Assembly (NCBI RefSeq): GCF_046119375.1
Contig: NW_027362765.1
Coordinates: forward strand, 114,452,001-114,516,000
Reading direction: 5' to 3'
DNA length: 64,000 nt
Source of the DNA: Phyllobates terribilis
Taxonomy: Eukaryota
Shown here: positions 541 through 31,463 of the stretch, one piece after another
How positions within the stretch are numbered: position 1 is the stretch's first letter
Layout: every line of letters begins with the position of its first letter
The notes under the pieces: model-generated
Told to the model about the DNA's origin: nothing
Database searches by the model: none
Seen by the model: the letters and a program-made list of their open reading frames with translations, nothing else
Program-made: the position numbers and the translations under genes

Positions 541-669
541 TATCCTGTACTGATCCTGAGTTATATCCTGTATTATACTCCAGAGCTGCACTCACTATTC
601 TGCTGGTGGAGTCACTGTGTACATACATTACATTACTTATCCTGTACTGATCCTGAGTTACATCCTGTA
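541..669 (+). repeat. 97-bp satellite-like unit (about 1.3 copies), left flank of the LINE
   Basis: tatcctgtactgatcctgagtt occurs at 541 and 638 (97-bp period). The unit contains ccagagctgcactcactattctgctggtggagtcactgtgtaca, which recurs at 15463. Confidence 0.8.
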
Positions 670-1340
670 GATCTTTTATTATAAAAATGAAAAACATAAC
701 AATAATAATAACAGAAACATAACAAAATTATCAACCGCAAAATAAACAATGTAATGAAACTGGTCCAGCGCTCCTTCTCCCCTCACACACATATTATACA
801 TATATACAGAATAATAACTACTCATATTACAGACTTCTGGTCCGGTTACCAAAGAAAATAATAACCACAAACAATAAATAAAATAAACAATAGCTGGAAA
901 AATATATACAAAACTTTTTTTTTTTTTTAATATACAATAAATACTAACTATACAACTATATACAAGACTAAACTAACCACCCAGCACTCAAACCCACCAT
1001 TCCCAACCCCGGCACTGACCTGAGAGCTGGTCCTGCGTCTCATGCCTCAGTCCATGTCCAACGTCCATAGGCCAGATCAGGCAGTGCCAGTTTTTCACCC
1101 AAATAACCAGTGTCCCAAAGTCCCACAAGATGAACCCACCTCCCCCCTTTTCCCACCACCCAACCTAACACCTACACCCAAATCCATAGCCTTATATACA
1201 ATATATACAGAAATAAACAATACAATAACCACAACTAACAAAGCCCAAGTTTGGCGCCTGCATCACTGTCTACTGATCAAAACGAAACAAAAATCTATGG
1301 TGTCAGCAGCAGCCCACCACCGGGAGAGGAGATGACCAGA

Positions 1341-3590
1341 CTAGGGCACACTAAAAGAAAAGCCCCTCCAGAGGAGAGCGGCCCTACATGTGCCCAGTCT
1401 CTCACACTCCAGAGAGCGCACCGTCACCAGGTCACCGAGTATGGTCCTAAACACATCGTCCACTGGGAGGATTTTCCGTTGCGTCAATACTAAGCACCAT
1501 GCGTTGCACGTGTGATACCTAACCACTGTGCTAACTAGAAATAAGGTGCAGCGGTGCTGACCACCCAGGTCTCCGATTGCTCCATAGGCCCATTCCACAT
1601 AAGAGAGATCGGCCAGCCGGGGCCAGCCAATGGAGGCGCCCACCCTGTTGTACACCTCTGTGTTAAAGGGACAACGAAGCAGGAAGTGGTCCACGCTTCC
1701 CAGCATGGTAACACAATGCTCCCGAGGACAGTTCCTGTCCTCAGAGCTCCTTCACACACAGTTTCCCATAGAAGCAGCACCAAGCCAAGTCCCAAAACTT
1801 CAAGGGGATCCTGATAGAATTGAAAAGATGCAGACCCACCCCAAGGTCCCGACTTGGGCAATCCCTGAGCGCCAGAGGCCTTTGAAAATGGGTCAACAAA
1901 ACCCTTTTGTCAAGGAGCTTCCTCGGCAGAGTCATGACCTCCCACATTCCCAGACCCCACCAGCGAATTAACTTCAGAACCAGGGTAGCGTAAGCTGGTA
2001 GATGTCCATGCGGTGTGCGTAGATCCTTCACTTGCCCTCCTGTTTCCCATTCCTGGAAGAAAGGCTGAAACCATCCCCTACAGGAGAATACCCACAGAGG
2101 AGCCCTCTCTTTCCAGAGGTTTGCAATATTGATCTTAATGAAGGTATTCACAAGGAATACCACAGGGTTGACCATACCCAACCCTCCTAGTCTCCTCGTA
2201 CGGTAAGTAACCTCCCTCTTGACCAGGTTCAGTCTATTCCCCCATAATAGTTGGAAGAACAAACTGTAGACTCGAGTCCAGAGAGGCTCTGACAAGATGC
2301 ACACACTGCCCAGATAGATCAGCAAAGGGAGCAGGTAAATTTTGATCAGGTTTATTCTTTCCCTTAGGGTCAAAGACCAACCCTTCCATTGGTTTACCTT
2401 CTGAGTGACAATCTCTAGCCAATTTTGTTTGGGGTAATCCCCCTGGCCAAATTCGATGGCAAGAACTTTTGCAGAGACTTTAGGTCCTGGAAGGGTGTCC
2501 GGGAGATCAAAACCAGGATCTCCTCCTCCTAGCCAGAGACTCTCACACTTATCCTGGTTGATTTTAGACCCGGATGCCTCAGAGTAGTGATTTACCTCTG
2601 ACATCAGCCATTCTGCCTCCCCATCAGTGGAAACAAAAACAGTGACGTCATCGGCATATGCCACCACTCTCAGAGTGGCTTCCGATGCTGCCCGTTCCAT
2701 CCCAGTCCCAGTCAACAGTCCACGCTCCACCCTCCTAAGAAGTGGGTCAATTGCAAATACGTACAGTAGCAGACTCAAGGGACAACCCTGGCGAACACCA
2801 CACCCAACCTCAAAAGAGCTGCCAATCCAACCGATCACAAGCGGGAAACTCTCTGCCCCAGCGTACAAGGTCTTAAGCCAATCAACAAACCCCCCCCCCC
2901 CGGCAAGCCATACCTCAGAAGGACAGACCAGAGGTACTCATGATTAACCTGATCGAACGCTTTTGCCTGGTCTAATGACAGCATGTACCCCTTCCAGTGG
3001 CCAGCCCTACCCTGCTCCACCGCCTCTCGGACACAGAGTATAGCACTAATTGTACTACGTCCCGGAACAGAGCAATGCTGAGCCCCCGAAAGTAGCCGGG
3101 GTGCAAATTTCACCAGCCGATTAAACAGCACCTTTGCCAAAACCTTCCTCTCTGCATTGTGAAGCACTATGGGACGCCAATTCTCAATGCAAGATGGGTC
3201 CTTAACCTTTGACAAGATGATCAGGGCAGACCTCCTCATTGACTTTGGCAGAGTTCCTGAGGAAAGACACTCACTGAATACCTCAGTCAAGAGGGGAACC
3301 AAGGCGTCCTTAAAGGTCTTATAGAATTCAGATGTTAAGCCATCTGGACCGGGAGACTTTTTTAGGGCAAGCCCTTCAATCGCCAACTTAACTTCCTCTT
3401 CCCTGATCATTTCTGTGAAAGCGCCAAGAGAGGGGTCTACCCCTGGTTCGGGGACGGCTTCAGCCAGAAAAGCCGACATCTCATCCCAATCCAGATCCCT
3501 CTTCCCCAAGAGGTGCGAGTAGAAGGATCTGACGACCTCCGGAATCCCTGATCTGGATCTTTTCAGGAACCCGCAGTGTCAACCAGGAGT
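1341..3590 (-). pseudogene. Tx1 ORF2 C-terminal part (RT and Cys/His domain), frameshifted
   Basis: Minus ORFs 2835-3509 (KKSPGPDGLTSEFYK, NWRPIVL, LDQAKAFDQVNH), 1741-2868 (GVRQGCPLS, YADDVT) and 1341-1706 (DHFLLRCP) are collinear L1/Tx1 RT motifs in different frames. Confidence 0.92.
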
Positions 3591-3669
3591 GAAATGTTAA
3601 TATGGTGTCGGGCAGCAATAGGTCTCAATAGGTCTCAGGGGTCAAGATTATCAGGCCCTGGTAGAACCC

Positions 3670-6600
3670 GTGTACTCTGATAGTAGGCCCACCATCTTGA
3701 CAGCCAGGGGTGTAGTCGATGTCCGCAAGGGGAGAGTACCGATACGCATCCTGAATTGTGGGGAGAAAGAGGTCCATTTACCCCGGTATGCCACCCTTGC
3801 TAAGCTGTTCACTGTCAGTAACAATGCAATAAAGGCAGTGGAACCCTTGCCTCCATCCAAACGGCCGGAGGATAATGGCTCCAAGGGGTAGGTGGAGGAT
3901 TGGTGTCAGAAGCTACAAGAAAACACTGACTCCACCCCTTTTCACCAAAAGCATGGAGTGTACCGGGTGGTCCAAGAATATGAGCGAGTCTTTAGCAAAC
4001 ACCCACTAGACTTTGGGCAGGTAAAAGGGGTCCAAGATCATATCCCCACAGGAGATCATCCGCCCATTAAAGAGAGGTACCATCCTGTACCCCCAGCTCA
4101 CTATCAATGTGCCAAGGGAATGTTACGGGAGATGAAGGAGGCTGGGATGATCAGAGATAGTTGTAGCCCCTGGGCAGCTCCATTAGTCCTTGTTAGAAAG
4201 AAAGATGGTACAATGAGGATGTGTGTTGATTATAGGCAGATTAACCGCAAACCGCATTAAACATAAGGACCCTTACCCATTACCCAAAATTGAGGAATCA
4301 TTGGCTGCACTAAGATCCGCTAACTATTTCTCCACTTTGGATCTCACCAGTGGGTATTGGCAGGTTCCCGTGGCAGAGGTGGACAGAGAGAAGACGGCGT
4401 TTACGACACCAATGGGCCTCAGCGAGTTCAACTGCATGCCATTCGGGCTCTGCAACGCCCTGGGAACTTTCCAGCGGTTAATGAAGTGTTGCCTAGGACA
4501 CAAAAACTTTGAAACCGTTCTGCTGTACCTAGATGACGTAATTGTCTACTCAAAGACATACGAAGATGTGTGACGCTCACACCCCGCCCTGGGAGATGGG
4601 GGTACTCGGAGCCGGGTCAGATGTTGGGGGGGGGGGTGTAGCCATGGCCTGGACCTGTCCCGTGCCCAGGGCCGTCACATTAAAAGATGTAATGGGCTTT
4701 CAGAGTTGGTGTTAATCGAGTGGTTGTATTGACTACGCCACCTGTGGTGTCTGGTGATTCCCCCACCAGCGCTGCGTTCAGTCCTCTGAGGCGGGATGTA
4801 ATGGCAGCAGGAGATGATACTACTCCTCACAGGCGGAGCAGGGCCTCAGGGCAGAGAGAACAGGAGGATGGGAACTGTAGTGGGAGATGTGGTGCGGTGT
4901 CGTACGGTGCCGCGTTGCAATAAGGAACTGGAGGCCATAGGGGTAGTCTTCCAAGCATTACTCACGGTAGAATGCACAGCTGCAAGGCTTCTCCCTGCTC
5001 CTCACGGCGTGCTGCGGCCACCAGGACCGGGGGTCCGACAACCTCCAGGTAGTTCAGGTGCTTTGGTCAGGACCCCGCACCAGAGTGTTCCTAGACTTTC
5101 CCACTAGGTCCTCTCCTGTCCATATGTGGTGCGTGTACTAAGGCCGGGTCTTCCTCTGGACTATGCACAGAACAAGGGTACGGGTGGCGACTCCACTCCG
5201 TCCGTTACCCGGTGGGATCCGCTGAGCCTCCGGGCTTCTCCGACTAAGATTTGAAGTGACAGAGTCAGATATCGGGGGCCGGTACCCCTTTTGCAGCAGG
5301 AATCCCTCTGACTAGGCCAGAATAATGAGGACAGGTGGCGTATACCGCTCCGTCTGCATCCCCCTGGGATCCTTTTGCCCGCGGAGCTTTACTTCTCCGC
5401 TCCCCTCCAGGCCTTCTTAAGTAAGGACCTTGACCGGGCAGAGACAGCTGTTAACTCTTGCTCGTTCCTCGTCTCAAGGCCAGAGTACGAGGACCGTGTC
5501 CCCATCAACTGCAGGTTCACACAGAAAGCCACGTTCAGCGATGAAGATCACAATCAAAGACCTTGAACTTAAGATGGTTGGCTATTAAATATGAATTTTG
5601 TACGTGTAACCTCTAAGTGTGTCCTCCACCCTTACCCACTACTAGGTTCCCCCTTACTTTTGGTTCCCCCATCTCCACTTATCCCGGCTGGGGCAGCACC
5701 CTGGTGCCTTAAAGCCCCCCTACAGGTGGAAGAGATGTAGTGTTGGATGCAGAGGTAGGGTCCTGACAGCTGCACCATCCTTACCTCAAAGGAGAGATAC
5801 CATACCTCATTAAAGAGATGCAGTACCCCTGTGGCGACCGAACCCTCAGGGGCGCCACAAAGACCACCTGGAGCACCTGACAGAGGTGTTTGAAGCCCTA
5901 TCTGGTTATGGCCTGAAAGTAAAGCCGTCCAAGTGCCACCTGTTGAAGCCCAAGGTGCAGTACCTAGGTCACGTGGTAAGCACTGAAGGTGTAGCACCAG
6001 ACCCTGAAAAAGTCACCGTGATCAAGGACTGGCCAAGACCCTCCACTATCAAGGAAGTGCAGCAGTTCCTCGGGCTGGTAAGCTACTACAGGAGATTCAT
6101 CAAGGGTTTCACCAAGATAGCGGCACCCATGCAGGACCTCCTAGTGGGCCAGTCCAAGAAGGCCAAGAACCCGAATCCTCCGTTCAAGTGGAGTAAAGCA
6201 GGAGAAGAATCCTTCACTCGACTGAAAGTGGCTCTTACGGGAGACGAAGTCCTGGCCTACCCTGACTATGGCCAAGCCTTTGTACTCTATGCGGATGCCA
6301 GCAACGTGGAATTTGGGAGCGGTGCTGTCCCAGGTACAGCAGGGCAGAGAGAGAGTGATTGCCTACGCCAGCAGGAAGCTCCGTCCCACAGAAAGGAACC
6401 CCGACAACTATAGTTCCTTTAAGTTGGAGTTTTTAGCCATAGTCTGGGCTGTAACAGAGAGCTTCAAACACTACCTCGCCTCCTCCATATTTACAGTCTT
6501 CACGGATAACAACCTGTTGACGCACCTGGAGACTGCGAAGCTTGGTGCCCTAGAACAACGATGGATGGCTCGACTGTCCAACTACGAGTTTACCATCAAG

Positions 6601-8379
6601 TATCGGGGGGGGGCATAAAAACGCTAATGCTGATGCGTTGTCCAGGATGCCCAACGTGCCAGATGGGGGAGTAGACCCGGAAGAGTTGGAAGAGATAGAG
6701 ATACCCGCTTTCCATTGTCACAGGGTGACCCAGTGCTCCCAATGTGTGAGGAACAAGCGCTCCGCTAACAGGGAGGCCACGTTTAACCCATTGCCCCACC
6801 ATGGATGGGCAGAGACGCAGGATAGCAACCCAGCTGTCCACCTAGTAAAGGAGTTGCTGACACAAGCTGACTCGCACCCTGATCCAGATGCTCCACAGGA
6901 GACCCAACAGTTGTGGAAGGAGAAGGGTAAGCTGTTCATCTACGAGGGAAAGCTGTGTCGAAGAAGCATCAACTCCCGGACACACAAACTGGTCTGGCAG
7001 GTGGTAGTCCGGAGGCGGGATGCGCCAATGGTCTTAGAAGCGTACCAAGATGGAGCAGGACACTTCAGGTGGAAGAAGTTGGAAGTCCTGCTACGTGAGT
7101 GATTCTACTGGGTTGGCATGAGGAAAGCGATCGAGAGATGGTGTCGAGAATGTGGTCCATGCAACCTGAAACGGAAAGACCGTGATAGCCAGAGGGCTCC
7201 CCTGCAGCCCATAATCACCAAACAACCACTTGAACTGGTAGCCTTGGACCACGTGAAGCTAGCCCCAAGTCAGTCAGGCTATGTCTACGCTCTCACCATA
7301 GTAGACCACTACTCCCGGGTTCCTGGTAGTAGTGCCAGTGAAGGACCAGACGGCTAAGACGGCAGCCAAAGCGTTTCAACAACACTTTTTTCGCCCGCAT
7401 GGCTACCCTGAATGAGTGCTTACCGACCAAGGCCCAGCCTTTGAAGCAGAAGTGTTTCAAGAATTCTGTAACTTGTACAGCTGCAAGAAAATAAGGATGA
7501 TGCCGTATCATCCCCAGACCAACGTGTTGTGCGAGAAAATGAACCAGGTGGTAATAGACTTGTTGAAGACGCTTGCCCTTGAAGAACGTAGCCTGTGGAC
7601 AGAGAAGTTACCTGATTTGGTGGACCTGTATAACCACATCCCGGTGAACTCCACCAACTGTACACCCGCCTACCTGATGAGAGCAAGACCTGGAAAGCTA
7701 CCCATTGACTTAGACATGGGAGTTTTAACACCTGGAGAACAGATACTCAAAAGGAAAAGACGAGTTCACAAATTAGATGATCAGTGGGAGGTTGAGCCAT
7801 ACACCATCTTACCTTCAAATTTCGACAAAACCAATGTATGCCTCATCAGTAAAGATGGAGGAGAGACTTCAACAGCAGTCTCAGAGAGACCACCGGAAGA
7901 TATGCCCTGATCAATTGAGACACAAAGAGGAAGACCAAAACAGCCCCCAGCACACAGAAACGGTGGAAGAAACGGTTCAAACCATCCTTGGAGAATTTCT
8001 CCGGTCTTGGACGCAGGTGAACCAAGCAATCGTGGTACCTGTCCTGACCTTTCCCCAAGTAGCCTCACAGGAAGCTGCAGAGACTCTAGAACAGCAGAAA
8101 GACCAGTCGGCCCCAGAAACAAATGCTTCATCAGCAGTGGAACCTGTGAATCTACCCCCTGCTAGCGGCGAATCTCTCATACCCATGGTGAGTCAAAGAG
8201 TTCGTAGAAGACTACCAAGCCTACTGGTGTTACCTCAGATTAACCGTAGTGTAGTCCACACTGAACCCACCACACCAGCGGCAGACACTAGAGACCCTTG
8301 TAGGTCATTGTTAACAAATGTACTGTGTAGATCAACCCATAGTACCATAGGTCAGCTCCCTGCCCGTTATAGGGAGTAA
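3670..8379 (+). pseudogene. Gypsy pol remnant (RT-RNaseH-integrase) with stops, frameshifts and a solo-LTR insertion
   Basis: ORFs 3892-4260, 4223-4573, 5886-6413, 6268-6618, 6638-7102, 7118-7357 and 7416-7910 tile one pol gene. Confidence 0.9.
4567..5859 (-). mobile_element. Solo LTR inserted in the Gypsy RT, antisense, 4-bp TSD AAGA
   Basis: TG...CA ends, with AAGA at 4563-4566 and 5860-5863. Removing the insert restores TAC GAA GAC CAC CTG GAG CAC (YEDHLEH). Confidence 0.9.
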
Positions 8380-8538
8380 AAAGTAGTAAAATAATAGTAT
8401 ATGTTATATACTTGCAACCGTTACGTAAACCTGGATATATATACTTATTAAATTTATGGACAAATGGACAACAGGACTAGGTGTGGTCAGGACAATGTTG
8501 AATAAAGTTAAGTGTTGGCCTTGAAAATAAACCGCAGG

Positions 8539-9589
8539 TGTGGCGCCCTGCTGTGCATTGGTGCCACAGAACCCAGAAGGGTGCATGGATGGACTTCTCC
8601 ACAGGAGGCCCTCACACATTCACACACCTCCACCCTACCACCTCAGACCAGTAGAGGGAGCCCGTTAGGGATATATATAGGGAGGGTGGAGCCAGGCAGT
8701 TCAGTCTAGAGTTTAGAGTTTAGTGTGCTGAGTGAGAGAGCAGCATGCAGGCTGCTAGGTGAGGCAAGTTGAGGCCTACAGCATGCACTGAAGCCTAGTG
8801 AGGGCCTTGAGTGGGCCGAAGGCGAGAGGAGAAGAAAGAAGTAGCAAGGGGACAGAGGAGCATACCAGGCTCACCCCGATATATATATACCGGACACCGG
8901 GTCCGCGCCTACAGGGACATTTATACTCAGTAGGAACCACCGGAACCCCTGGAGGTCTACAGGTCCCAGGTTCACCAAACGCTGGCTACAGTACCAGGGC
9001 TAGGAGTCACGGAGGTCCCAGCGTCCAGGGAGAGTGATCTCCAAAGAGAAGGCCCTACCACCAGGTCAGCAGGTGCCAAGAGAGACAGTAACCAAGCTAG
9101 GCCTAGCTCCAGGCAGGTCAGAAGCTTAGAGAAGAAAGCAACTGATCTGGAGGCCCTATACCCGCTCACTGGGGAGAGTCCAAAAGTGCTCCTTTCACCT
9201 GGAATACCCTGGACCGTGCCTGCAGCATCACCAGTAAAGGTACTGAAGCTTACCCCCGTGTGAGTGTACGTCTTTCCTCCGGGACCCTCCTGCCGTCTCT
9301 CCCCTGCACCACCATCCATTACACCCCACGCTGCCCTGGAGCTAGCTCTACCTGTGGAGAGCCACACCATCCCTGCTGCCATAACACCAGCTCCAGTAGA
9401 ATGCTCCGCAGCGGCGGCACCCCTTAGCCGCATTCCACAGGTGGCGTCACAAACTTTCCCAAATCCCCTATAAAATATCCCCCCTTTTACTGACCACCCT
9501 GGGTCACGGACCGGGCCAGCTACCGTGATATCCCCCAGCAACCAGAGGCCCGGCTGCCGAGTACCCCATGGCCCTGGGGGTGCGTCACA
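8539..9589 (+). repeat. 3' LTR of the Gypsy element
   Basis: Starts tgtggcgccctg and ends gggggtgcgtcaca. Contains TATA-like tatata motifs and shares terminal motifs with the other two LTRs. Confidence 0.8.
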
Positions 9590-10922
9590 GGCGTGGCCAA
9601 AAAACAGGCCCACCGACAGAGTGCCCTGAAGCCATGCCCAGGGACCATACACGAAGTGGGTTGAGGAGGTTCCCACCAACCAAACGTCAGGTATCCGGAA
9701 AAAGACAATTCCTGGATAGTGGCGTAAAGACTAAGCGCCGCAATGACTGCTACCAATTTTTGTTGGGTTTTTGTGATTTTTGCTTTTTGAGACTCAATTT
9801 TGTAAATTGTTGGTAATGAGAATTGTTATTGTTGTTAATTGTTAATTCAAAAAGGTATCCTCAGTCCGGGAGTACTGAATTTAATTAGGGGGGAATGTGA
9901 CACCCAGGGGTCCAGTTGCCACAGTGGCATTGCCTCCCTCACAAGGGGTGATACCATGCCTGGAAGCAAGGAGGGGTCCCCTAGTCAGGTTTACCAGCAT
10001 GCAACACTTTCCTGGCTCTAGACCAGAAAGGGGAGCTCCTCCCCTTGACAACTGGAATCTGAAGGCGGGGTTAGTAAGAGTGAGTTGAGAGGAGTTGAAG
10101 ACAGGACAGCGACGAGGAAGGACCTGGGGAAGGGAGCTGTGTATAAGCTCGCCCTAGAGGAGAGAAGCGCAGAAGAACTGGACACTGGAGTCCGAGGTTG
10201 TGGGGCACTGAAGGCCCAGCAGCAGAATTCGGAGGGCAGGAGACTGCAGGTCTCCTGACCCCATCCGACGCCCGGCGACACAGCAGCACCATAGGGCCCA
10301 GCATCGCCACGTGGGAGCGACACTTAAGGAAGGCCCGAGCTGCCTGCCATACTGGTGAGGAAAAAGACATTTTACTCAGGGACGAGGGCCGCAGCATAGC
10401 TACAAGCAGCAGGGCCAAAGAGATTAGCACAGAGGGAAGGCCTACAACTTCACCTGGCGAGGTGGATCTCCAACTTGCTTCCAGGCCGCCCGGACCTCTA
10501 CTACCAGCTAGTACCCGTGCCCCAGGCTGCTTAACAAACCGCAAGTAAAGATAAGAGGAAACCGCCATTAAGCTGTGGACTGGTCATTATCTGCGCCATC
10601 ATCTGCACTACACCGCACCAACAACATCTACCTCATAGCATTACTATATCCTGCCCTGGAGCTAAGTTCTGCCTGTGGAGAGCTGAACCAACTCTGCTGC
10701 GTCACCATCAGCTCCAGAGGATCTGCACCGCAGCGGCGGCTCCATATAGCCGCATACCACAGGTGGCGTCACGAACATTATCTCTGTAAAAACTTTATTC
10801 TCCTTTTACTTTTCCCCTTTTATTGACCGCCCTGGGTCACGGACCGGGTCACTGCCACTGTGACATCCCCCAGCACTGACCGGCCCGGCTACCGAGTACC
10901 CCATGGCCCAGGGGGAGCGCCA
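9590..10922 (+). mobile_element. 3' end of a second LTR element: internal tail, PPT and LTR 9896-10922
   Basis: Purine tract aggggggaa directly precedes tgtgacacccagggg (9896). The LTR ends gggggagcgcca (10922), after which Tx1 ORF2 resumes. Confidence 0.8.
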
Positions 10923-11937
10923 GGTACTTCCCATAATCCCTCTCAAAAAACAAAGATGCGTGTCTATCATACTGACAACTCATTAGCAAAGATTTCACTC
11001 TGGAGATCTCCAGTTGAGACAAGATGCTCGAGTTTCCTCCTCAGGCCCTGATACAGGCGGTACCTGTCCAGACTCCTGAGCCTCAACAGCTGGTGGAAGA
11101 ATCTCGTCACCATATTCTTGAACATCTCCCACCAATCTGAAGAAAATCCTCAAAGGATTGTCTTATCTCCGCTTCTTCCAAGAGAGGCTAATTGAGCCCC
11201 CAAAAGCCTCTTCCAATACAGGGGTCTCTGTAACATTCAGAGAAAACAAAATCAAACAGTGATCGGAGCACTCCACTTCAACAACAGATACTGCTGAAGA
11301 GACGGCTTCTTCCTATAAATAAAACCTGACTATCTTGGACCTACATTTACCTCTATGATAGGTGAACCCCTCGTGGCCTGGGGTGTGCTGGATGTGGACA
11401 TCCACCAGGCGAGCCTCACTAGCTATACTATTAAGGGCGACGCTATCATAAGTCAGCTTGTGTCTGGAACCTCTTCTATCCCGGGGCCTCGTGACAGTGT
11501 TGAAGTCCCCTCCAAAGATGACCTGCCGACTCGTAAAAAGGTAGGGCTTGATCCTCATAAAGAGAAACTTCCGGTCCCACTTAGATTGGGGACCATAGAT
11601 GTTAATTAGCCGAAGCTCCTGTCCCTTCATGAGGACATCTAATATCAGGCAACTCCCCATTTCTAACTCAATAACCCATCGACATTCTACCGGTGCAATA
11701 AAAAGGACCCACTCCGCTATCCAGCTTGGTTGCAAGAGACCAATAGGAGGGCCCGAGTCTCCACTCCCTCTTAGCTTTAAACACCTCTGCCATGTTTGGC
11801 AGCCTGGTCTCTTGCAAAAAGAAAATGTCAGCTTCAACTCGGCTGAGAAAATCAAAGGCTGCAAATCTAGCCATATTTGACTTAATGCTGGCGACATTAA
11901 TGGATGCCAACGTCAACGGAGTGGGTACCGCCATCAT
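10923..11937 (-). pseudogene. Tx1 ORF2 N-terminal part (APE endonuclease), frameshifted
   Basis: MMAVPTPLTLASINVASIK...FFLQETRL, LINIYGP, GGDFNTV, FTYHRG and a downstream SDH motif are APE endonuclease motifs. Confidence 0.9.
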
Positions 11938-14900
11938 TGGTGATTGAGATAGGTGGCTTTCTTTTTACCACTCCCCTTATCCTCTGCCTCAGAAGAGGAA
12001 TCCTTCCGCCTCTTTAGCGATACAGAGGTGTCCATTCCCACATTTTTCCTTCTTTTCTTGTCCTCGTCTCCGGACTCAGGGCCAGTCCCTCCCCCCAAGG
12101 ACCTTGCATCCCCAGGAGAAGGAGACTCGGCGCCCCTGGTAAGCTCCGCCGAATCCAGAACCTCACCCTCGGCCTCCTCCTCAGAGGAAGTGATGTTCTC
12201 AAGGACTTGGAACCAGTTAGAAAGACCAACCAGAGGGGAGTCTGTTTTACCTTCCTTAGGTATCTTGGTCAAAGCGGGAGAAGATGTTTTATCTCCCTTC
12301 TTTCTCTTCTTTTTGGTGCCGAGCTTACACTTGTCCTCTAGCCACCACTTATTATCCTCATCCATACTTTCATAATGGGAGGATTATGAGGCAGAGGCAG
12401 TTTCCTCCCTGTGGATCCTCCTGACCTCCTCATCCAACTCATCATCCCTTGGGGCCTCAGCAGCAAGACTGGCATCCAGGACAGGGGCTGTCCCAGTAGC
12501 CCGGGGCTCGTCCCGCTCCCTCTCCTGTCTGCGCTTGTCTGGACGCCTCAGCTGGGCAGGCGTCTTTTTATTGCTTTTCTTCCCTGGCCCCTCAGCTCCC
12601 CCACCCCTGCTAGTCTCCTCCCCAGCAGAATCGGCCTCACGGCTTTCTTCCACCGGGGTCTCGACCGCATTAGCGAAGGAGCGAGGACAACGGCTGAATG
12701 GGTGACCTAACTCACCACACAAGTGGCGCCTAATCTGTACACAAGATGCAGCAAGATGGCCAACACCCCCCACACAACGCACATTTCTGCACAGTCCAGT
12801 TTGAACTGAAGTGTGTGAGGTCGCTGCACTTGTGACAGAGCTTTGGTTGCCTTGGTAGAAGACCAGGATACGATCCCTACCAAGGAATGCAGATGATGGA
12901 ATGTGGGCAACCGTACCACCTGAACACTTAAGTTTTACCATAAATCTCCAGGCCCCTGACCAGATAGCAAACTCATTGTGGTTTTTCTTTGGCATCTCCA
13001 CCACCTCTCCATACCGACCAAGCCACGTCATGATGTCATAACAAGAAAGCGTCATCATGGTCAATTTCTTGATTTGGTTTTGGCAAGACACTGCCAGAAC
13101 GGCAAAGTTTCGCCAGCCGGGCTCATTTTTTGCCAACTCATAATTCAACCAGAAGAGCTCAAGCCCCTCCGGCCAAACAAAGCTGACATCAAACTCAGGC
13201 ATGGAATAGGGATGTATCAAGTCATAGATGTCAATCGCCTTGAAGCCCATCCTCAGCTGGAGCACCACAAATTTAGACCTTGGAGGACATGCATCACTGC
13301 CCCTCCACCCAAGACGGACCACATTCCTACGCACACTGCCTGGCCCGGCTGTTGGGAGGGACCACACTGTATCCCCCCCTTTTTGCTCTCGGAAGGCCCC
13401 AAGGCCATACTTCTCTATCCAGAAGGATAGATCAACCTCTCGACCCTCTACCATTAGTGATCTCTCTCCCTTCTTTAGAGCCTCCAGAAGGCGCCGTTGC
13501 AACATGCCATCCCCAGAGCCCGGAGACGAAGAGGAGGAAGATGCCCTATTTGCCCCGGAGGTGAAACTGGCATAACTCTGGACAGGCGTTGCCATCACCG
13601 GGGGGACTACCGGACCAGTGACTACATCAGCCTCAACAGCATCACCATTACCCACTTCCATCTTACCCTCCACCAAACCAGCAACCACACCACTAGACAA
13701 TGAATTGGCCTCATTCACACCCACCACCACATTCACTCCTGCTGGACCAGTAACAACGGTGGATGACATTTTGACCTCAGCATCATCAGGCACAAGGAGC
13801 TCAGTCACCTCCATAGAACTGGAGGCGACCTCACCCCTGGTCTTATGTGTGACTTCCACATCATCATTCGGTAATTTCCGCTGTTTTACATTTGTAGCGA
13901 TGCGCCGCTGATCCTTAGCTGTTGTGAGGCACCACTGATCTTTAGCATCAGGATCTTCCTGACTAGCGGAGCCAACACAAAATAACACTTTGGTAGAAGG
14001 ACTGGAACGCTCAGCCCCGGCAGCCCCCTCACACTGCCGCCGCTCCTCAACTAAGAGCTCCTCAGCAGCAACAGCATTCAGAGGTGCCGAGGCTACCGGA
14101 GCTGCCCCCGACACCGGGCTGCTCCCCCCTCCCACTGAGGAGCGCACCACAGCATCGTAGCCTGACCGAACACCCGCCGCCGGGCTACCCTCACTGTCCA
14201 GCCTCTCGGCTGATGCACCTCCGGCTACGTCTCCGCTACTAGAAGCAGAGACGGAGCTCTGCGCCTCACTACCTCGCTTTGTAATCTCCCCGCGCCTTTG
14301 CACCGGATCCACAGCAGAACCCGGGCTGGGCTGGGCAACGAGGCTTATACAGTGAGCTGAGCCTGCCGCCAACTCAGGGGTACAGGGAGGGGGGCATATA
14401 CGTATCTTACCGCTTCCTGCAGCTTTGGCTTGGTCTTTTTAGCCTTTTTCTGTCCGCCAGGTGCCTCTTCTGGTGGATCGTCACCAAGATGGAAGTTTTG
14501 GAGGCACACTGGGGACTCCAGGAGCTTTATTTCTGCCATTAGCGCCCCTCCCTGGCCGCTGCTGTCACTGTCCTCCCCAGAGCCGGCAGAACTTCGACCG
14601 GATGTCATTGTCGCCTGTCCTACAGGGAGCTCGCTGCATGTGGCCTGCACGTGACTTTGCAGGCTGCCAGGTGGGGCTTTCTACTGGTCATCATCACTCT
14701 CATCAACCATCTGGCTCTCAGGCTGCAGCCCCATCTGCCTTTGCTTTCTATTATCTCTTTGAATCGGTCTTCATTTATCAGTTTTTCCTTAAAATGACCA
14801 CACTGCTCTCTGATGACAGCTTTCCTTAGTTCAAGCACATTAATTTCACTTGTGAGCCTCTTTACCTCCGCCTGGAGTTTAGTCTTCCTCGGACTGGAGG

Positions 14901-15320
14901 CACCCGGAGCTTTGGCGCTTGTGCAGTGCAGCTCCTCCCGAAGCCTCCTGATGAGTTACTTGCATCTTCATACTCACAGAGGTGGATCATGACCCAGGAG
15001 GCATAGGTGGACACAGACTCCCGGGGACTTTGCAGTGCCCAACCCTCCTCAGTGTGGTCGGCCTCACCTCCGTGAGCACTCAGCTTTCCTCCGGAAGGAG
15101 CGTCATCATGCACGCTGTCTGACTTACCCTCCATGTTGTAAGCCTTGCGGCTTTTCTGTGTCTCCACTGACCCGGGGGGAGTAGGAGCCACATTGCTGCG
15201 ACTCCTGGTGGAACGTCTCACCCCTGAGTCCTCCGATGTGCAGGCCGGTTTCTGGTTTCTCCTGGTCCCCGCCGGCCTGGTTCAGGGAACAGAAGCCTGA
15301 GACTTGTCTCCATCACTCAT
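11934..15320 (-). pseudogene. Tx1 ORF1 (RRM-like plus zinc knuckles, ZCCHC3-like core), disrupted
   Basis: The 662-aa ORF 12384-14372 has DIYDLIHP..PEFDVSF, DIMTWLGRYG, IWSGAW and LCGELGHPFSRCP. The acidic/basic tail is in ORF 11934-12365. A candidate start ATG AGT GAT GGA lies at 15320. Confidence 0.8.
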
Positions 15321-15462
15321 CCCAGGAAACCCACTCCCCCCTTGGGTAGGAGAGAGAGCAGGTCCCCAGGTGGAGAGGTGTTGGTTCTCTGGAGCTCAGG
15401 AGCACACAGCAGGTTCTGCAGCCACCACACACACACAATCACCACAGTGAGCAACAGCTGAT

Positions 15463-15570
15463 CAGAGCTGCACTCACTATTCTGCTGGTGGAGTCACTGT
15501 GTACATCCATTACATTACTTATATTACACTGATATTGTGTATACTTCAGAGCAGCGCTCACTATACAGCT
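15463..15570 (+). repeat. Continuation of the 97-bp unit, right flank of the LINE
   Basis: cagagctgcactcactattctgctggtggagtcactgtgtacat matches 581-624, then decays. Confidence 0.8.
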
Positions 15571-15919
15571 GACTCAGTCTTTCCTGAGGTTCTAGTTTAC
15601 CACTTATAATCCCTCAATCAGGTCGCGCCCTTGTGCTCACAGTGACGATCTCTCACATTTACATTACTGTTCCTGATGTGGAATCTCTGATTACAGCCCA
15701 GTAAAAATAATTTGCCCTTCAAAGAAAATGAATATTAATTAGAACAGAAGCTGCGTAACCTCGTCAATTACCTGCAATGTAAATCAGGATGTAATTAACA
15801 TCATATAACGAGGGGCAGGGGCATTGGGAATCAGTGACTGGGAGAAGGTGAGGGCAAAACCTCAAGAACATCAATAGCTGCTCGTGTAATCTGGTCATCA
15901 GGGGTTTTTGTTTGAGAAT

Positions 15920-16635
15920 GATTCCATAGCAGCACAGAGTATTTCAGGAGGGAATTTACAAAGCATTACATACTGCAGAGTCTCCCCTTAGGAGAGGAGT
16001 GGGATGATCTTGTGAAAGGTCATCCACTTCTTGTTACTTAGTGGAACAATGCCCCCAGCAGCACAGAGTATTTCAGGAGAGTATAGGATCTTTGGAAAGG
16101 TCACGCACTCAATTTTTGGAAAGTGGAGCATTGCCTCCAGCAGTGCAGAGTATTTCAGAAGAGGACTAAACTAGTCTTGTTAGATGTCAAAGACTGAGAG
16201 AAGATGCAGTCTCTCCAAGCAGCACAGATTATTTCAGCTGAGAAGTATTTGCAGACTGAGAGTTAAATAAGGCAGGGTGCGGGGAAGAGGATGTCCCTCT
16301 GAAAAACCAAGTATTTCAGGAGAGGAGTTTGCTAATCTTGTGAGGGTTATATAGGGAAACAATGTCCACCAGCAGCACAGATGATTTCAGGAGCAACATG
16401 CTCATCTCATGGAAGGTCAGAGGCTGAGAGGTGCAGAAAGGAGGGTTTCTCAGCAACACAGATTATTTCAGGAAAAAAGTATGCTGATTTTGTGGGAGCT
16501 CACAGACTGGGAGTTTCATAATGCAGGGTATCGCAGCAGCACAGAGGATGTCAGGAGGGGAGTGTTCTGATTTTTTTGCAAGGTCACATGGTGCAAGTTT
16601 TCTGCTGCAGCACAGAGGATTTCAGAAGCAGAAAC
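15920..16635 (+). repeat. Old degenerate tandem array, period about 71-83 bp
   Basis: The core cagcagcacagagtatttcagga recurs, with tttcag (tgtcag at 16549) at about 15942, 16071, 16153, 16232, 16314, 16385, 16466, 16549 and 16620. Confidence 0.75.
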
Positions 16636-17229: not shown

Positions 17230-20200
17230 TCTGAAAGGCATGGGTACTGTGGATGTGATCAGAAGAGGGGGCACTGTGGATGCGATGGGGGCACTGTGAA
17301 TGTGATGGGGGTACTGTGGATGTGATCAGAAGAGGGGGCACTGTGGATGTGATGAGGGCACTGTGGATGTGATGGGGACACTGTGGATGTGATGGGGACA
17401 CTGGATGTAATGGGGACACTGTGGATGTGATGGGGGCATTGTGGATGTGATGGGGGTACTGTGGATGTGATCAGAAGAGGGGGCACTGTGGATGTGATGG
17501 GGGCACTGTGAATGTGATGGGGGTACTGTGGATGTGATCAGAAGAGGGGGCACTGTGGATGTGATGGGGGCACTGTGGATGTGATGGGGGCACTGTGGAT
17601 GTGATCAGAAGAGGGGGCACTGTGGATGCGATGGGGGCACTGTGAATGTGATGGGGGTACTGTGGATGTGATCAGAAGAGGGGGCACTGTGGATGTGATG
17701 AGGGCACTGTGGATGTGATGGGGACACTGTGGATGTGATGGGGACACTGGATGTAATGGGGACACTGTGGATGTGATGGGGGCATTGTGGATGTGATGGG
17801 GGTACTGTGGATGTGATCAGAAGAGGGGGCACTGTGGATGTGATGGGGGCACTGTGAATGTGATGGGGGTACTGTGGATGTGATCAGAAGAGGGGGCACT
17901 GTGGATGTGATGGGGGCACTGTGGATGTGATGGGGGCACTGTGGATGTGATCAGAAGAGGGGGCACTGTGGATGTGATGGGGGCACTGTGAATGTGATGG
18001 GGTACTGTGGATGTGATCAGAAGAGGGGGCACTGTGGATGTGATGGGGGCACTGTGAATGTGATGGGGGTACTGTGGATGTGATCAGAAGAGGGGGCACT
18101 GTGGATGTGATGAGGGCACTGTGGATGTGATGGGGACACTGTGGATGTGATGGGGACACTGGATGTAATGGGGACACTGTGGATGTGATGGGGGCATTGT
18201 GGATGTGATGGGGGTACTGTGGATGTGATCAGAAGAGGGGGCACTGTGGATGTGATGGGGGCACTGTGAATGTGATGGGGTACTGTGGATGTGATCAGAA
18301 GAGGGGGCACTGTGGATGTGATGGGGCAGTGTGAATGTGATGGGGGTACTGTGGATGTGATCAGAAGGGGGGGCACTGTGGATGTGATGAGGGCACTGTG
18401 GATGTGATGGGGACACTGTGGATGTGATGGGGACACTGTGGATGTGATGGGGACACTGTGGATGTGATGGGGTACTGTGGATGTGATCAGAAGAGGGGGC
18501 ACTGTGGATGTGATGAGGGCACTGTGAATGTGATGGGGGCACTGTGGATGTGATCAGAAGAGGGGGCACTGTGGATGTGATGGGGGCACTGTGAATGTGA
18601 TAGGGGTACTGTGGATGTGATCAGAAGAGGGGGCACTGCGGATGTGATGGGGGCACTGTGAATGTGATGGGGGTACTGTGGATGTGATCAGAAGAGGGGG
18701 CACTGTGGATGTGATGGGGCACTGTGAATGTGATGGGGGTACTGTGGATGTGATCAGAAGAGGGGGCACTGTGGATGTGATGAGGGCACTGTGGATGTGA
18801 TGGGGACACTGTGGATGTGATGGGGGCATTGTGGATGTGATGGGGTACTGTGGATGTGATCAGAAGAGGGGGCACTGTGGATGTGATGGGGGCACTGTGA
18901 ATGTGATGGGGGCACTGTGGATGTGATCAGAAGAGGGGGCACTGTGGATGTGATGGGGGCACTGTGAATGTGATAGGGGTACTGTGGATGTGATCAGAAG
19001 AGGGGGCACTGTGGATGTGATGGGGGCACTGTGAATGTGATGGGGGTACTGTGGATGTGATCAGAAGAGGGGGCACTGTGGATGTGATGGGGGCACTGTG
19101 AATGTGATGGGGGCACTGTGGATGTGATCAGAAGAGGGGGCACTGTGGATGTGATGGGGGCACTGTGAATGTGATTGGGGGTACTGTGGATGTGATCAGA
19201 AGAGGGGGCACTGTGGATGTGATGGGGACACTGTGGATATGATGGGGACACTGGATGTATTGGGGACACTGTGGATGTGATGGGGCACTGTGGATGTGAT
19301 GAGGACACTGGGTGCGATGAGGACACTGGGTGTGATGGGGGCACTGTGGATGTGATGGGGCACTGTGGAAGTGATGGGGACACTGTGGATTTGATGGGGG
19401 CACTGTGGATGTGATGAGGACACTGGGTGTGATGAGGACACTGCGTGTGATGGGGGCACTGTGGATTTGATGGGGGCACTGTGGATGTGATGGGGCACTG
19501 TGGATGTGATGGGGCACTGTGGATGTGATGGGGACACTGTGGATGTGATGGGGACACTGGATGTGATGGGGGCATTGTGGATGTGATGGGGCACTGTGGA
19601 AGTGATGGGGCACTGTGGAAGTGATGGGGCACTGTGGAAGTGATGGGGACACTGTGGAAGTGATGGGGACACTGTGGATGTGATGAGGACACTGGGTGCG
19701 ATGAGGACACTGGGTGTGATGGGGGCACTGTGGATGTGATGGGGCACTGTGGAAGTGATGGGGACACTGTGGAAGTGATGGGGACGCTGTGGAAGTGATG
19801 GGGACGCTGTGGATGTGATGGGGACACTGTGGATGTGATGGGGACACTGTGGATTTGATGGGGACACTGTGGATTTGATGGGGGCACTGTGGATGTGATG
19901 AGGACACTGGGTGTGATGAGGACACTGCGGATGTGATGGGGGTACTGTGGATGTGATGGGTGTACTGTGGATGTGATGGGAGTACTGTGGGTGTGATGGG
20001 GCACTGTGAGTGTGGTGAGGACAGTGTGGGTGTGATGGGGTCACAGTGGATGTGATGAGGCACTGGGTGTGATGTTAGTACTGTGAATGTGATGAGGTCA
20101 ATGGATGTAACATTGGCACCATGGATGTGATGGGGCATTGTAGATGGGATGAGGGTACTGTGGATCTGATGAGAGCACTATGGGCATAAAGGGGGAAATG

Positions 20201-20325
20201 TGGATGTGAGGAGGGCACTGCGGATGTGAAGGGGGTACTTTGGATGTGAGGACGGCACTGTGGATGTTGGTAGGGCATTGCGGATGTGATGGGTGTACTG
20301 TGGATGTGATAAGGGCACTGTCGGT
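17230..20325. repeat. Minisatellite (ggcactgtggatgtgatg(g)n, about 20-27-bp units) with a 346-bp higher-order period
   Basis: Units are directly visible. Identical translated blocks occur at 17259/17605 and 17326/17672. The array degenerates towards 20300. Confidence 0.95.
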
Positions 20326-20970
20326 GTGAGGGGAGCACACTTCCCATCCTCCTCTTCCCCGGCAGGGACGCCAAGTCACTTGCCGCATACATCCTATTCC
20401 TGCTGCTGCTTCTCGGGGTCTGCATATGCCTGGCAGAGTCGCAGGCACTGTCCTTAGGGTGCGCGCTCGCTCCCGTCTCTTAAAGAGCCCCAGGCCAATG
20501 GCTGGGAGACACTTATTATCTAAGGCACCTACACCTGTTGGAGGTGCCTGTGCAAAATATTCACTCTGTTTTCATGCTTACTAGTTCTCAGGTCCCCTAT
20601 CCTAGTTTACCTTCCAGTACCTGCCTATGCCTGCCTGTATACCAGCCGTGGCGGCATGTATACCAACCGCACCTGCCTTGCCCGCCTGTATACCAGTTGT
20701 ACCTACCTGCACCTGCTGTAAACGCCTGTATATCAGCCATACCTGCCTGCACCTGCCTTGCCTGTACCTGCTGAGCTTTCCCTTTCTAGTCCATTCCAGC
20801 TCCCTGCCCTTGTGTGTCAGAGGTCTGTCCTGAAGTAGCACCTGGGGTTCATCTGGAGCCAAGTTTAACCCCACCATCAGGGGCTTTAGAGAAGAATGAG
20901 GTGTCTAGTCACGCCCCTCCAGGCTCTCCTTGGTCCACGACACAGTGGTTCCACCACCATTCCTGTTACA
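20325..20970 (+). mobile_element. LTR-like fragment (probable Gypsy solo LTR)
   Basis: Promoter-like core (gcgcgc, cttaaag, ccaat), internal cctgcctgtatacc repeats and a ...tgttaca end. No TSD found. Confidence 0.4.
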
Positions 20971-24788: not shown

Positions 24789-24968
24789 ATGCTGTTGCTC
24801 CCGGGACTTCTCCTCCGCCGGGGCCCGGTGCTGCGGCCTTCACTCCGCGGCCTGTGTGTGGGGGCTGCCCGGCTGCGGTGTGTACGGGAAGTCGGAGCTC
24901 TGCGGCCTCCTGCTCTCTGCCACCTGCCGGAGCTCACAGCCATGTGTGTCAGGACGTACACGGCTCAG
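24789..24968 (+). CDS. FAM210B: FAM210B coding exon 1 (Arg/Leu-rich, mitochondrial-presequence-like)
   Basis: ATG at 24789, MLLLPGLLLRRGPVLRPSLRG...TYTAQ, donor CAG|GTGGGT, phase 0 compatible with exon 2. The start codon choice is an inference. Confidence 0.7.
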
Positions 24969-24989
24969 GTGGGTCGGGGACAGAGAGAG

Positions 24990-27900
24990 AGAGGGCCCCA
25001 ACAGGAGGAGACGGGGAGGGTTGTGCGAGGGAGGTGGGGGACCCCCGACAGGAGGAGACGGGGAGGGTTGTGCGAGGGAGGTGGGGGACCCCCGACAGGA
25101 GGAGACGGGGAGGGTTGTGCGAGGGAGGTGGGGGACCCCCGACAGGAGGAGACGGGGAGGGTTGTGCGAGGGAGGTGGGGGACCCCCGACAGGAGGAGAC
25201 GGGGAGGGTTGTGCGAGGGAGGTGGGGGACCCCCGACAGGAGGAGACGGGGAGGGAGGTGGGGGACCCCCGACAGGAGGAGACGGGGAGGGTTGTGCGAG
25301 GGAGGTGGGGGACCCCCGACAGGAGGAGACGGGGAGGGTTGTGCGAGGGAGGTGGGGGACCCCCGACAGGAGGAGACGGGGAGGGTTGTGCGAGGGAGGT
25401 GGGGGACCCCCGACAGGAGGAGACGGGGAGGATTGTGCGACGGAGGTGGGGGGCCCCCGACAGGAGGAGACGGGGAGGGTTGTGTGAGGGAGGGTTGTGC
25501 GAGGGAGGTGGGGGACCCCCGACAGGAGGAGACGGGGAGGGTTGTGCGAGGGAGGTGGGGGACCCCCGACAGGAGGAGACGGGGAGGGTTGTGCGAGGGA
25601 GGTGGGGGACCCCCGACAGGAGGAGACGGGGAGGGTCGTGCGAGGGAGGTGGGGGACCCCCGACAGGAGGAGACGGGGAGGGTCGTGCGAGGGAGGTGGG
25701 GGACCCCCGACAGGAGGAGACGGGGAGGGTCGTGCGAGGGAGGTGGGGGACCCCCGACAGGAGACGGGGAGGGTCGTGTGAGGGAGGTGGGGAGGGTTGT
25801 GTGGGGGACCCCCGACAGGAGGCGACGGGGAGGGTCGTGTGGGGGACCCCCGACAGGAGGCGACGGGGAGGGTCGTGTGGGGGACCCCCGACAGGAGGAG
25901 ACGGGGAGGGTCGTGTGAGGGAGGTGGGGGACCCCCGACAGGAGGAGACGGGGAGGGTCGTGTGAGGGAGGTGGGGGACCCCCGACAGGAGGAGACGGGG
26001 AGGGTCGTGTGAGGGAGGTGGGGGACCCCCGACAGCAGGAGACGGGGAGGGTCGTGTGAGGGAGGTGGGGGACCCCCGACAGGAGGAGACGGGGAGGGTC
26101 GTGCGAGGGAGGTGGGGGACCCCCGACAGGAGGAGACGGGGAGGGTCGTGCGAGGGAGGTGGGGGACCCCCGACAGGAGGAGACGGGGAGGGTTGTGTGA
26201 GGGAGGGTTGTGCGAGGGAGGTGGGGGACCCCCGACAGGAGGAGACGGGGAGGGTTGTGTGAGGGAGGGTTGTGCGAGGGAGGTGGGGGACCCCCGACAG
26301 GAGGAGACGGGGAGGGTTGTGCGAGGGAGGTGGGGGACCCCCGACAGGAGGAGACGGGGAGGGTTGTGCGAGGGAGGTGGGGGACCCCCGACAGGAGGAG
26401 ACGGGGAGGGTTGTGCGAGGGAGGTGGGGGACCCCCGACAGGAGGAGACGGGGAGGGTTGTGCGAGGGAGGTGGGGGACCCCCGACAGGAGGAGACGGGG
26501 AGGGTTGTGCGAGGGAGGTGGGGGACCCCCGACAGGAGGAGACGGGGAGGGTTGTGCGAGGGAGGTGGGGGACCCCCGACAGGAGGAGACGGGGAGGGTT
26601 GTGCGAGGGAGGTGGGGGACCCCCGACAGGAGGAGACGGGGAGGGTTGTGCGAGGGAGGTGGGGGACCCCCGACAGGAGGAGACGGGGAGGGTTGTGCGA
26701 GGGAGGTGGGGGACCCCCGACAGGAGGAGACGGGGAGGGTTGTGCGAGGGAGGTGGGGGGCCCCCGACAGGAGGAGACGGGGAGGGTTGTGTGAGGGAGG
26801 GTTGTGCGAGGGAGGTGGGGGACCCCCGACAGGAGGAGACGGGGAGGGTTGTGCGAGGGAGGTGGGGGGCCCCTGACAGGAGGAGACGGGGAGGGTTGTG
26901 TGAGGGAGGGTTGTGCGAGGGAGGTGGGGGACCCCCGACAGGAGGAGACGGGGAGGGTTGTGCGAGGGAGGTGGGGGACCCCCGACAGGAGGAGACGGGG
27001 AGGGTTGTGCGAGGGAGGTGGGGGACCCCCGACAGGAGGAGACGGGGAGGGTTGTGCGAGGGAGGTGGGGGACCCCCGACAGGAGGAGACGGGGAGGGTT
27101 GTGCGAGGGAGGTGGGGGACCCCCGACAGGAGGAGACGGGGAGGGTTGTGCGAGGGAGGTGGGGGACCCCCGACAGGAGGAGACGGGGAGGGTTGTGCGA
27201 GGGAGGTGGGGGACCCCCGACAGGAGGAGACGGGGAGGGTTGTGCGAGGGAGGTGGGGGACCCCCGACAGGAGGAGACGGGGAGGGTTGTGCGAGGGAGG
27301 TGGGGGACCCCCGACAGGAGGAGACGGGGAGGGTTGTGCGAGGGAGGTGGGGGACCCCCGACAGGAGGAGACGGGGAGGGTCGTGCGAGGGAGGTGGGGG
27401 ACCCCCGACAGGAGGAGACGGGGAGGGTCGTGCGAGGGAGGTGGGGGACCCCCGACAGGAGGAGACGGGGAGGGTCGTGCGAGGGAGGTGGGGGACCCCC
27501 GACAGGAGGAGACGGGGAGGGAGGTGGGGGACCCCCGACAGGAGGAGACGGGGAGGGTTGTGCGAGGGAGGTGGGGGACCCCCGACAGGAGGAGACGGGG
27601 AGGGTTGTGCGAGGGAGGTGGGGGACCCCCGACAGGAGGAGACGGGGAGGGTTGTGCGAGGGAGGTGGGGGACCCCCGACAGGAGGAGACGGGGAGGGTT
27701 GTGCGAGGGAGGTGGGGGGCCCCCGACAGGAGGAGACGGGGAGGGTTGTGTGAGGGAGGGTTGTGCGAGGGAGGTGGGGGACCCCCGACAGGAGGAGACG
27801 GGGAGGGTTGTGCGAGGGAGGTGGGGGGCCCCTGACAGGAGGAGACGGGGAGGGTTGTGTGAGGGAGGGTTGTGCGAGGGAGGTGGGGGACCCCCGACAG

Positions 27901-30900: not shown

Positions 30901-30915
30901 AGACGGGGGGGGGGG
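24990..30915 (+). repeat. 47-bp G-rich tandem array (about 125 copies) in FAM210B intron 1
   Basis: Unit gacccccgacaggaggagacggggagggttgtgcgagggaggtgggg, period 47 (e.g. 25041 to 25088), with variant sub-blocks. Confidence 0.97.
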
Positions 30916-31463
30916 GGGGGTGTGAGAGGCACGGACAGGAGGCTCCAGGGCTGTGTGGGCTTTTGAATGGTAGTCCCAGCGGCCCCCACTTTTTTGGGAG
31001 GCGAAGTGAACTAAAAACAGCAATTCTGCCATTTAGAATGTTTTTCACTTCGGCATTTACCTTAAGGGTTAAATATTCTGATATTTTATTAGTTGCTCCG
31101 TAGGCCCTGGCTGGCATCACCGTGGCACAGTCATGTTGCAGAAGGGTGGATGGGTCACCTTCCCCCATTTGCACATCTTAAATCCTGCTGTCCTGTTTGT
31201 CCGCAGCATCTTAGAGGGTAAACTGCTGCTCTCCGAGCTGCCATTATTCACAGCAGTTAGATTCCGGTGACAACTGTATAACACAGCTGGCAGCTGCTCT
31301 TTATAATGTGTACATGTATGCAGAGGTCACTGGTTGGACCCTGGCACTTTTCCAGGTTTGCCATGCACTAGCCCTTGTGCCATATCGCCTCCTCATAGAT
31401 GTTCTCTGTTCACATGTAATGTCAGAAGCAGGATGTGGCTCTGATCAATTATTTTGTGCACAG

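Follow-up and report, generated by a model that had tools for sequence, protein, structure and literature searches.

We analyzed a 64,000-nucleotide (nt) window of the Phyllobates terribilis genome (contig NW_027362765.1, positions 114,452,001 to 114,516,000), in which a long interspersed nuclear element (LINE) lies inside an array of a short satellite repeat. Mapping of the ends of this element across the genome establishes, with almost no room for doubt, that the LINE family occupies specific sites of a dispersed 86/97-bp satellite. In young copies, the satellite "flank" at the 5' end belongs to the element, being upstream target sequence that is inherited from copy to copy. At the window locus, the left flank ends at ...GAGTTACATCCTGTA (position 669) and the right flank restarts at CAGAGCTGCACTC (position 15463), while in the intact unit at 541 to 637 the same two segments are separated by TTATACTC. 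The insert thus stands in place of 8 nt, and no target-site duplication (TSD) is visible at its junctions. These features, described in the original prediction, were all found again when the junctions were reread.

The same prediction held that the family targets the 97-bp repeat, and mapping of 3' and 5' ends genome-wide with tabulation of their flanks bore this out. The final 231 nt of the element served as the 3' query, and 40 of 1,006 candidates were scored, the window copy among them. All 40 adjoin the satellite with the LINE ending as in the window, nearly all at ...CCTGTA joined to GATCTTTT; two copies depart from this, one by using the second ATCCTGTA in the unit and the other by lying at a site that has been rearranged. 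For the 5' end, 40 of 1,244 candidates were scored and 30 were fetched, each of which shows ...GCTGAT joined to CAGAGCTG with a few substitutions at most. Exact 20-mers of the 3' end are preceded by the exact 9-nt flank in 488 of 606 genome-wide occurrences, and those of the 5' end are followed by the exact 8-nt flank in 201 of 235. Non-exact 3' ends (30 in the first 100 listed, 20 fetched) still lie in the satellite in 20/20 cases, 18 at the same site with one substitution and 2 at the second ATCCTGTA, a position occupied by three copies in all. When 30 copies, including one tandem triplicate, were picked by the C terminus of open reading frame 2 (ORF2) alone, 29 were satellite-flanked, the last one giving no clear flank over 10 kb. 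By 3' junction, 19 of these are of class A and 8 of class B (both described below); 2 of the 3 others are class A behind a later insertion. The LINE lies in one orientation relative to the satellite, and the share of flanks of one sequence type (40/40 at the 3' end, 30/30 at the 5' end) lies above the 20% that Kojima's criterion for target specificity demands (PMC4494074). Exact empty sites number 173,127 in the 10.57-Gb genome (~8e-6 per position and strand), and none of 20 arbitrary 10-kb genome samples (0/200 kb) contained the satellite. The association is far above this background; neither unrelated flanks nor an association explained by genomic abundance appeared. Copies L075, L099, and L065 are head-to-tail LINEs, with a spacer of as little as one 89-nt satellite stretch.

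An association of this kind could also arise if a few insertions had spread with their flanking satellite by DNA duplication, gene conversion, or a carrier transposon. The near absence of 5' truncation, the internal deletions in 14/49 copies, the existence of real duplicate clusters, and flank variants that travel with the element all fit such hitchhiking. The coding sequences argue otherwise. In 71 copies, after removal of four known duplicates, the ratio of nonsynonymous to synonymous polymorphism (pN/pS) in ORF2 was 0.80, 0.57, 0.43, and 0.22 for alleles present in 1, 2, 3 to 5, and ≥6 copies, and the corresponding values for ORF1 were 0.88, 0.70, 0.53, and 0.24. This strong synonymous skew of shared mutations reflects purifying selection and indicates that the copies spread by retrotransposition, and the copy tree is a ladder of successive subfamilies. 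The outer array flanks are unrelated among 52 compared, other repeats and one duplicate pair excepted, and the sequence that does travel with the element stops between satellite positions 44 and 58. A miniature inverted-repeat transposable element or DNA transposon carrying the arrays was rejected, as neither shared outer flanks nor carrier termini were found. The pN/pS gradient, the unrelated outer flanks, and the concordance with the local array beyond the carried sequence point to independent insertions. Hitchhiking is therefore very improbable for the family as a whole and remains an explanation for local clusters only. Dozens of near-identical, regularly spaced copies on C3 (78 to 87 Mb and 108 to 114 Mb) and C81 have a spacing pointing to large tandem segmental duplication; some of these copies carry an insert that we take to be Helitron-like.

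Variation in the first satellite unit after the 5' junction was compared with that in neighboring units. Among 78 distinct 5' junctions (47 old, 5 intermediate, and 26 young), a three-base satellite variant (CCAGTATG-type) is present in 24 first units, compared to 0 of 213 neighboring units. The variant is found in 24 of the 26 copies that bear the young allele of the element and in none of the 52 others, and 589 of its 618 occurrences genome-wide directly follow the element. Further alleles are enriched in 47 young first units relative to 206 neighbors, at position 29 (19/47 versus 22/206), position 41 (7/47 versus 3/206), and position 44 (G; 6/47 versus 0/206). In young copies, position 29 is independent of the local array (p 0.97), whereas position 58 (p 0.016) and unit length (p 0.0002) track it. 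Since linked alleles extend to position 44 and position 58 tracks the array, the carried leader ends between 44 and ~57. In 4/4 sequencing runs of the same organism, drawn from two studies and presumed at best to be RNA, contigs span the young 5' junction. This junction is thus no assembly artifact, although the contigs do not locate the RNA start.

These data bear on a simpler reading, in which the endonuclease alone selects the site, a pair of nicks staggered by 8 nt removes TTATACTC, and the satellite-like bases are all host target. The uniformity of the junctions is as expected under this reading, the Tx1L endonuclease is sequence-specific in vitro (PMC1950540), and the old copies are without the leader-specific variant. 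However, the three-base variant is almost confined to the first unit and goes with a single element clade, which refutes this reading for young copies; nor does it explain why variable 5' truncations are nearly absent. In 75 ten-kb loci, 49 copies are full-length (one with a small deletion across the end), only 1 is truncated and joined to satellite, and 4 have another insert before the satellite; a second 5'-truncated copy was found outside this set. Targeting by endonuclease alone is thus improbable as a general account, yet it may still describe the first nick, or insertion in the oldest subfamilies. A long TSD (the unit minus 8 nt) and a TSD of 22 to 27 nt were rejected, as the left and right segment copies differ in young copies. 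Because the element carries satellite at its 5' end, the loss of 8 nt is likely inherited rather than a fresh cleavage scar; the junction seen in the original prediction is real, and the replacement of 8 nt is better read as a property of the element. Just past the satellite beside one 5'-truncated copy, an unrelated element has an open frame of 1,083 codons (L176:4166-7414).

The 3' junctions fall into two classes. At the main junction (class A), the unit length of the flank tracks the local array (p 0.0008, 29 young loci), showing that this flank is target-derived. In class B, ...CTATTCTGCTGGT is joined to CTGGT 90 nt inside the 3' untranslated region (UTR), and AATAAA is dropped. Class B comprises 327 exact copies, many in one duplicated cluster, and several have an open ORF2 and the usual 5' junction. 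The corresponding flank test against the local array was uninformative (p 0.17, n=10), and a tail variant at position ~70 gave no signal of being carried by the element (p 0.12), in a sample biased to non-exact ends. Class B as a single derived subfamily was rejected: monophyly of the 8 class B copies among 31 young copies fails the approximately unbiased (AU) test (p 4e-65), with recombination as a caveat, and these copies need 6 changes on the tree (mean of 7.3 in 500 shuffles, 64 as low). Class B is most simply explained by internal priming that has recurred at a second site, again with the caveat of recombination between subfamilies.

The scatter of class B on the tree has a further possible explanation, in which an RNA with satellite at both ends pairs with any satellite nick or break and the endonuclease adds little specificity. 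In support, all of the rarer junctions (class B CTGGT, L186, and L093) have short matches between RNA and target, and the AU result separates class B copies into more than one clade. Against this, the 3' flank past ~10 to 20 nt tracks the local array, so that any 3' tail must be short; the 3' junctions occur at few positions only; and a scattered class B could also result from recombination between subfamilies. We regard such RNA-guided targeting as unlikely, though worth keeping in view.

The reading that we prefer, and consider quite probable, is leader-guided insertion by target-primed reverse transcription, with ~45 to 55 nt of satellite carried at the 5' end of young copies. The RNA would start, or be cut, ~45 to 57 nt upstream within the satellite. 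The apurinic endonuclease (APE) of the element would nick the plus strand of the satellite, for the most part after ...ATCCTGTA, where reverse transcription would begin. In a sizeable minority of insertions, priming may instead occur at ...TATTCTGCTGGT through 5 matching nt located 90 nt into the 3' UTR; here the junction is observed, and the route to it is conjectural. The leader cDNA would then anneal to the next unit and replace at least its first 44 bases, and the unpaired TTATACTC would be dropped. Each insertion would lose the 8 nt that separate the 3' nick from the point where leader homology starts, giving uniform full-length junctions without a TSD. R2 elements with upstream 28S sequence on their RNA have likewise uniform 5' junctions, a uniform 7-bp deletion, and inherited substitutions (PMC3774820), and from this likeness we infer the same route here.

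Several observations weigh against this scheme. Two of the 26 young copies are without the three-base variant, and 21 of the 75 ten-kb loci reach no 5' end within 10 kb. Among the 49 full-length copies, 14 have internal deletions. In old copies, including the subfamily of the window, position 29 tracks the local array (p 0.0006), so the old leader was either shorter than 29 nt or overwritten; in the window's own subfamily, the uniform junction is observed and a long leader is not. Plain DNA duplicates exist (the C3 78- to 87-Mb cluster, the L070 tandem, and L141-L143), and copy counts therefore overstate independent insertions. No clean ribozyme or promoter accounts for a fixed RNA start, and the nick sites and RNA ends are deduced from genomic copies.

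The part of the window that contains the insert is organized as follows (LTR, long terminal repeat; RT, reverse transcriptase).

1 to 540, no strand assigned: Tc1-like DNA transposon, right part only, at a TA within the satellite array
541 to 669, plus strand: satellite, an intact 97-bp unit (541 to 637) and 32 nt up to the main 3' junction ...ATCCTGTA
670 to 1343, minus strand: LINE 3' UTR and ORF2 stop codon; element-strand end ...AATAAAAGATC, without a poly(A) tail
1344 to 3586, minus strand: ORF2, RT and C-terminal zinc-binding part, frameshifted (RVT_1 here; RVT_1 and zf-RVT in copy L071)
3587 to 10922, plus strand: nested, broken Gypsy-like LTR-retrotransposon pieces, a later insertion with pol remnants (RT_RNaseH_2 and RVT_1 at 5814 to 6410)
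10923 to 11937, minus strand: ORF2 N-terminal part with APE-type endonuclease, broken (Exo_endo_phos in L071)
11937 to 15281, minus strand: ORF1, in pieces (PF23057, PF23058)
15282 to 15462, minus strand: LINE 5' UTR to the visible satellite junction, the same junction as in 30/30 fetched copies
15444 to 15480, minus strand: hairpin spanning the 5' junction (satellite positions 4 to 18 with element positions 4 to 19)
15463 to 15519, minus strand: first 57 nt of the right-hand satellite unit, of which positions 1 to at least 44 are element-carried in young copies; for this old copy, a putative leader only
15520 to 15571, plus strand: degenerate end of the satellite array

The window LINE thus consists of 670 to 3586 and 10923 to 15462 on the minus strand, ~7.45 kb in total. 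A 14.8-kb insert is present, as first described, yet it is not a single element, since it combines the LINE with later LTR-retrotransposon pieces. The Gypsy-like nest is ~7.3 kb long, ~60 nt of the LINE ORF2 were lost at the break, and other copies are uninterrupted. Its LTR-like segments end in TCACA/GCCACA/GCGCCA, with repeats at 9331-9587/10651-10922, and one LTR-like piece (~4567 to 5861) lies within the pol remnant of a second piece, where AAGA appears to be duplicated. The copy is old; it groups with copies ~93% identical to one another, whereas young copies are ~98% identical. The other end of the transposon at 1 to 540 and further satellite units lie just left of the window (L100); the inverted termini match each other, and a TA stands on either side. 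Its terminal repeat is presumably that of the Tc1-like family, and the element has an internal deletion. Elsewhere in the window are at least 7 degenerate 79- to 83-bp repeats of a separate family (15900 to 16630, core AGCAGCACAGAGTATTTCAGGA); two long GC-rich minisatellites with 20-bp and 47-bp units (17246 to 20338 and 24996 to 30912), of which the long open frames at 24840 to 31177 are a by-product; and two short pieces of the 86/97-bp satellite in opposite orientations (45175 to 45315).

The hairpin across the 5' junction lies on the element-sense strand (z -2.45; 5/200 shuffles as good); a hairpin at the 3' junction was rejected (z -0.47). Over old, intermediate, and young junctions (47, 5, and 26), one of its pairs passes from G-C through G-G to C-G; three of the other pairs are new or better in the young junctions, another has turned into a wobble, and a further one has been lost. 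Because the independent events are few and an inverted repeat can arise by template switching, this pattern suggests, at most, that the hairpin is functional. An HDV (hepatitis delta virus)-like ribozyme was also considered, defined by a nested double pseudoknot with a 6- to 7-bp P1, P3/L3, P1.1, and a catalytic C beside P2. Rfam gave a sub-threshold match to CPEB3 (HDV-like) in one young copy from satellite position 46 (16.3 bits, gathering cutoff of 35, E 0.05 to 0.26), where by inspection P1 is poor and P2 is out of register. The window copy had no Rfam ribozyme match over its 5' junction, and a loose HDV-like descriptor run over 86 junctions returned only mismatch-laden candidates. With a sub-threshold match and no clean fold, the candidate was rejected, and a ribozyme at the 5' junction is doubtful. 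We hold as similarly speculative a scenario in which the element is promoterless, is transcribed by read-through from the satellite, and is freed by a self-processing fold of leader and 5' UTR whose halves coevolve (G-C to C-G via a mismatch). If it were true, an APE-type LINE would have converged on the strategy of R2, with satellite replacing ribosomal DNA (rDNA).

By its domain architecture, the element is a LINE of the L1/Tx1 type. Uninterrupted copies are 7.57 to 7.60 kb long. In intact copies, ORF1 encodes ~1,130 amino acids with a long low-complexity region, two ZCCHC3-type RNA-binding domains, and CCHC knuckles; copy L184 has an open frame of 1149 codons. Profile matches to PF23057, PF23058, and, weakly, zf-CCHC give it the composition of the Type I ORF1 of the Tx1 clade, as opposed to Transposase_22, and an ORF1 of the RNA recognition motif (RRM) type has been described as consistent with Tx1 (PMC5203782). 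ORF2 of L071 contains the Exo_endo_phos, RVT_1, and zf-RVT (27.4 bits, cutoff of 27.5) domains of the L1/Tx1 group, and many young copies have an open ORF2 of 1,145 codons. The best Protein Data Bank matches were human L1 ORF2p for ORF2 (E 6.5e-69) and L1-EN structures for the endonuclease of copy L171. The Tx1-clade label of the original prediction fits this architecture (APE-RT-zinc ORF2, RRM/CCHC ORF1); the RT tree, built from 118 sequences, contained no named Tx1 or L1 reference. In that tree, ORF2 falls in a 24-sequence clade (support 1.0). Every named member of the clade comes from a frog (Bufo, Xenopus, Leptobrachium, and Pelobates are represented), and a coelacanth protein lies outside it. 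Bufo gargarizans XP_044146854.1 is 75% identical to ORF2 and lies in the clade (support 1.0), as do the Xenopus tropicalis UniRef RT proteins P0005 and P0009 at 57% (Xenopus overall, 45 to 58%); these three proteins may correspond to named Repbase families. Tx1L was not among the matches listed in the ORF2 protein searches, an automatically named YTX2 protein is 28% identical to ORF2 over 889 columns, and a metagenome scan for flanked relatives in other species returned only relatives of 26 to 39% identity.

The repeat unit was first given as 97 bp. This length is present, yet it is not the only one: of 202 unit lengths counted, 104 are 97 bp and 70 are 86 bp. The satellite is 57 to 60% A+T and forms short dispersed arrays with unrelated outer flanks. 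It was also found in sequencing runs of four other organisms, and no contig of those runs bridges a LINE-satellite junction, which is no proof of absence. Its coverage is very deep in RNA libraries of two other organisms (X16 and X17), whose contigs give no proof of transcription. PepSat2-97 of Physalaemus ephippifer (PV463925; PMC12191414) is likewise an abundant 97-bp monomer, with 55.7% A+T versus 57 to 60% here; compared by length and composition only, it is a lead.

Target-specific Tx1 LINEs (Tx1L in Tx1D, Keno, Kibi/Koshi, Tx1-Mar, and the "Sat" families), as presented in PMC4494074, share with the element an APE-RT-zinc ORF2, an ORF1 of RRM type with CCHC, a fixed site in multicopy sequence, and tandem insertions, and satellites are already listed there as a Tx1 target type (Fig. 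3 legend). Unlike the named Tx1 families, the LINE described here has a dispersed 86/97-bp frog satellite as its target and belongs to an anuran-wide RT clade. Tx1L makes a 23-bp TSD, whereas this LINE makes none. R2 elements have one ORF with a restriction-like endonuclease. In the accounts of springtail, earwig, sow bug, and silkmoth R2 in PMC3774820, a target-derived leader and a uniform small deletion (7 bp in springtail) recall the present element, and a heteroduplex of cDNA and target has been proposed. R2, however, targets rDNA and forms its 5' end by a proven HDV-like ribozyme, whereas the present element is an APE-type, two-ORF element with a satellite target and no demonstrated ribozyme. 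Literature searches returned no report of this LINE-satellite pair, the "Sat" families of PMC4494074 being compared by figure legend only, and motif searches of papers for the element and satellite sequences found nothing. The pair therefore appears to be new, while satellite-targeting Tx1 elements and target-carrying R2 leaders have already been published; the variant features of this pair are the R2-like carried leader and the second priming site.

These findings carry a warning for the reading of insertions in tandem repeats: when a target-site deletion or duplication is deduced from full-length copies there, it can be a fossil that the copies have inherited. Second-strand priming has so far been worked out mainly for R2, and the principle itself is not new. 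The family is young, has more than 170,000 target sites that are harmless, and carries marker mutations of natural origin, by which junction bases derived from the RNA can be separated from those derived from the target. For an APE-type element, the step of LINE insertion that is least understood, priming of the second strand at the 5' end, can thereby be read from genomic copies and put to the test in vitro.

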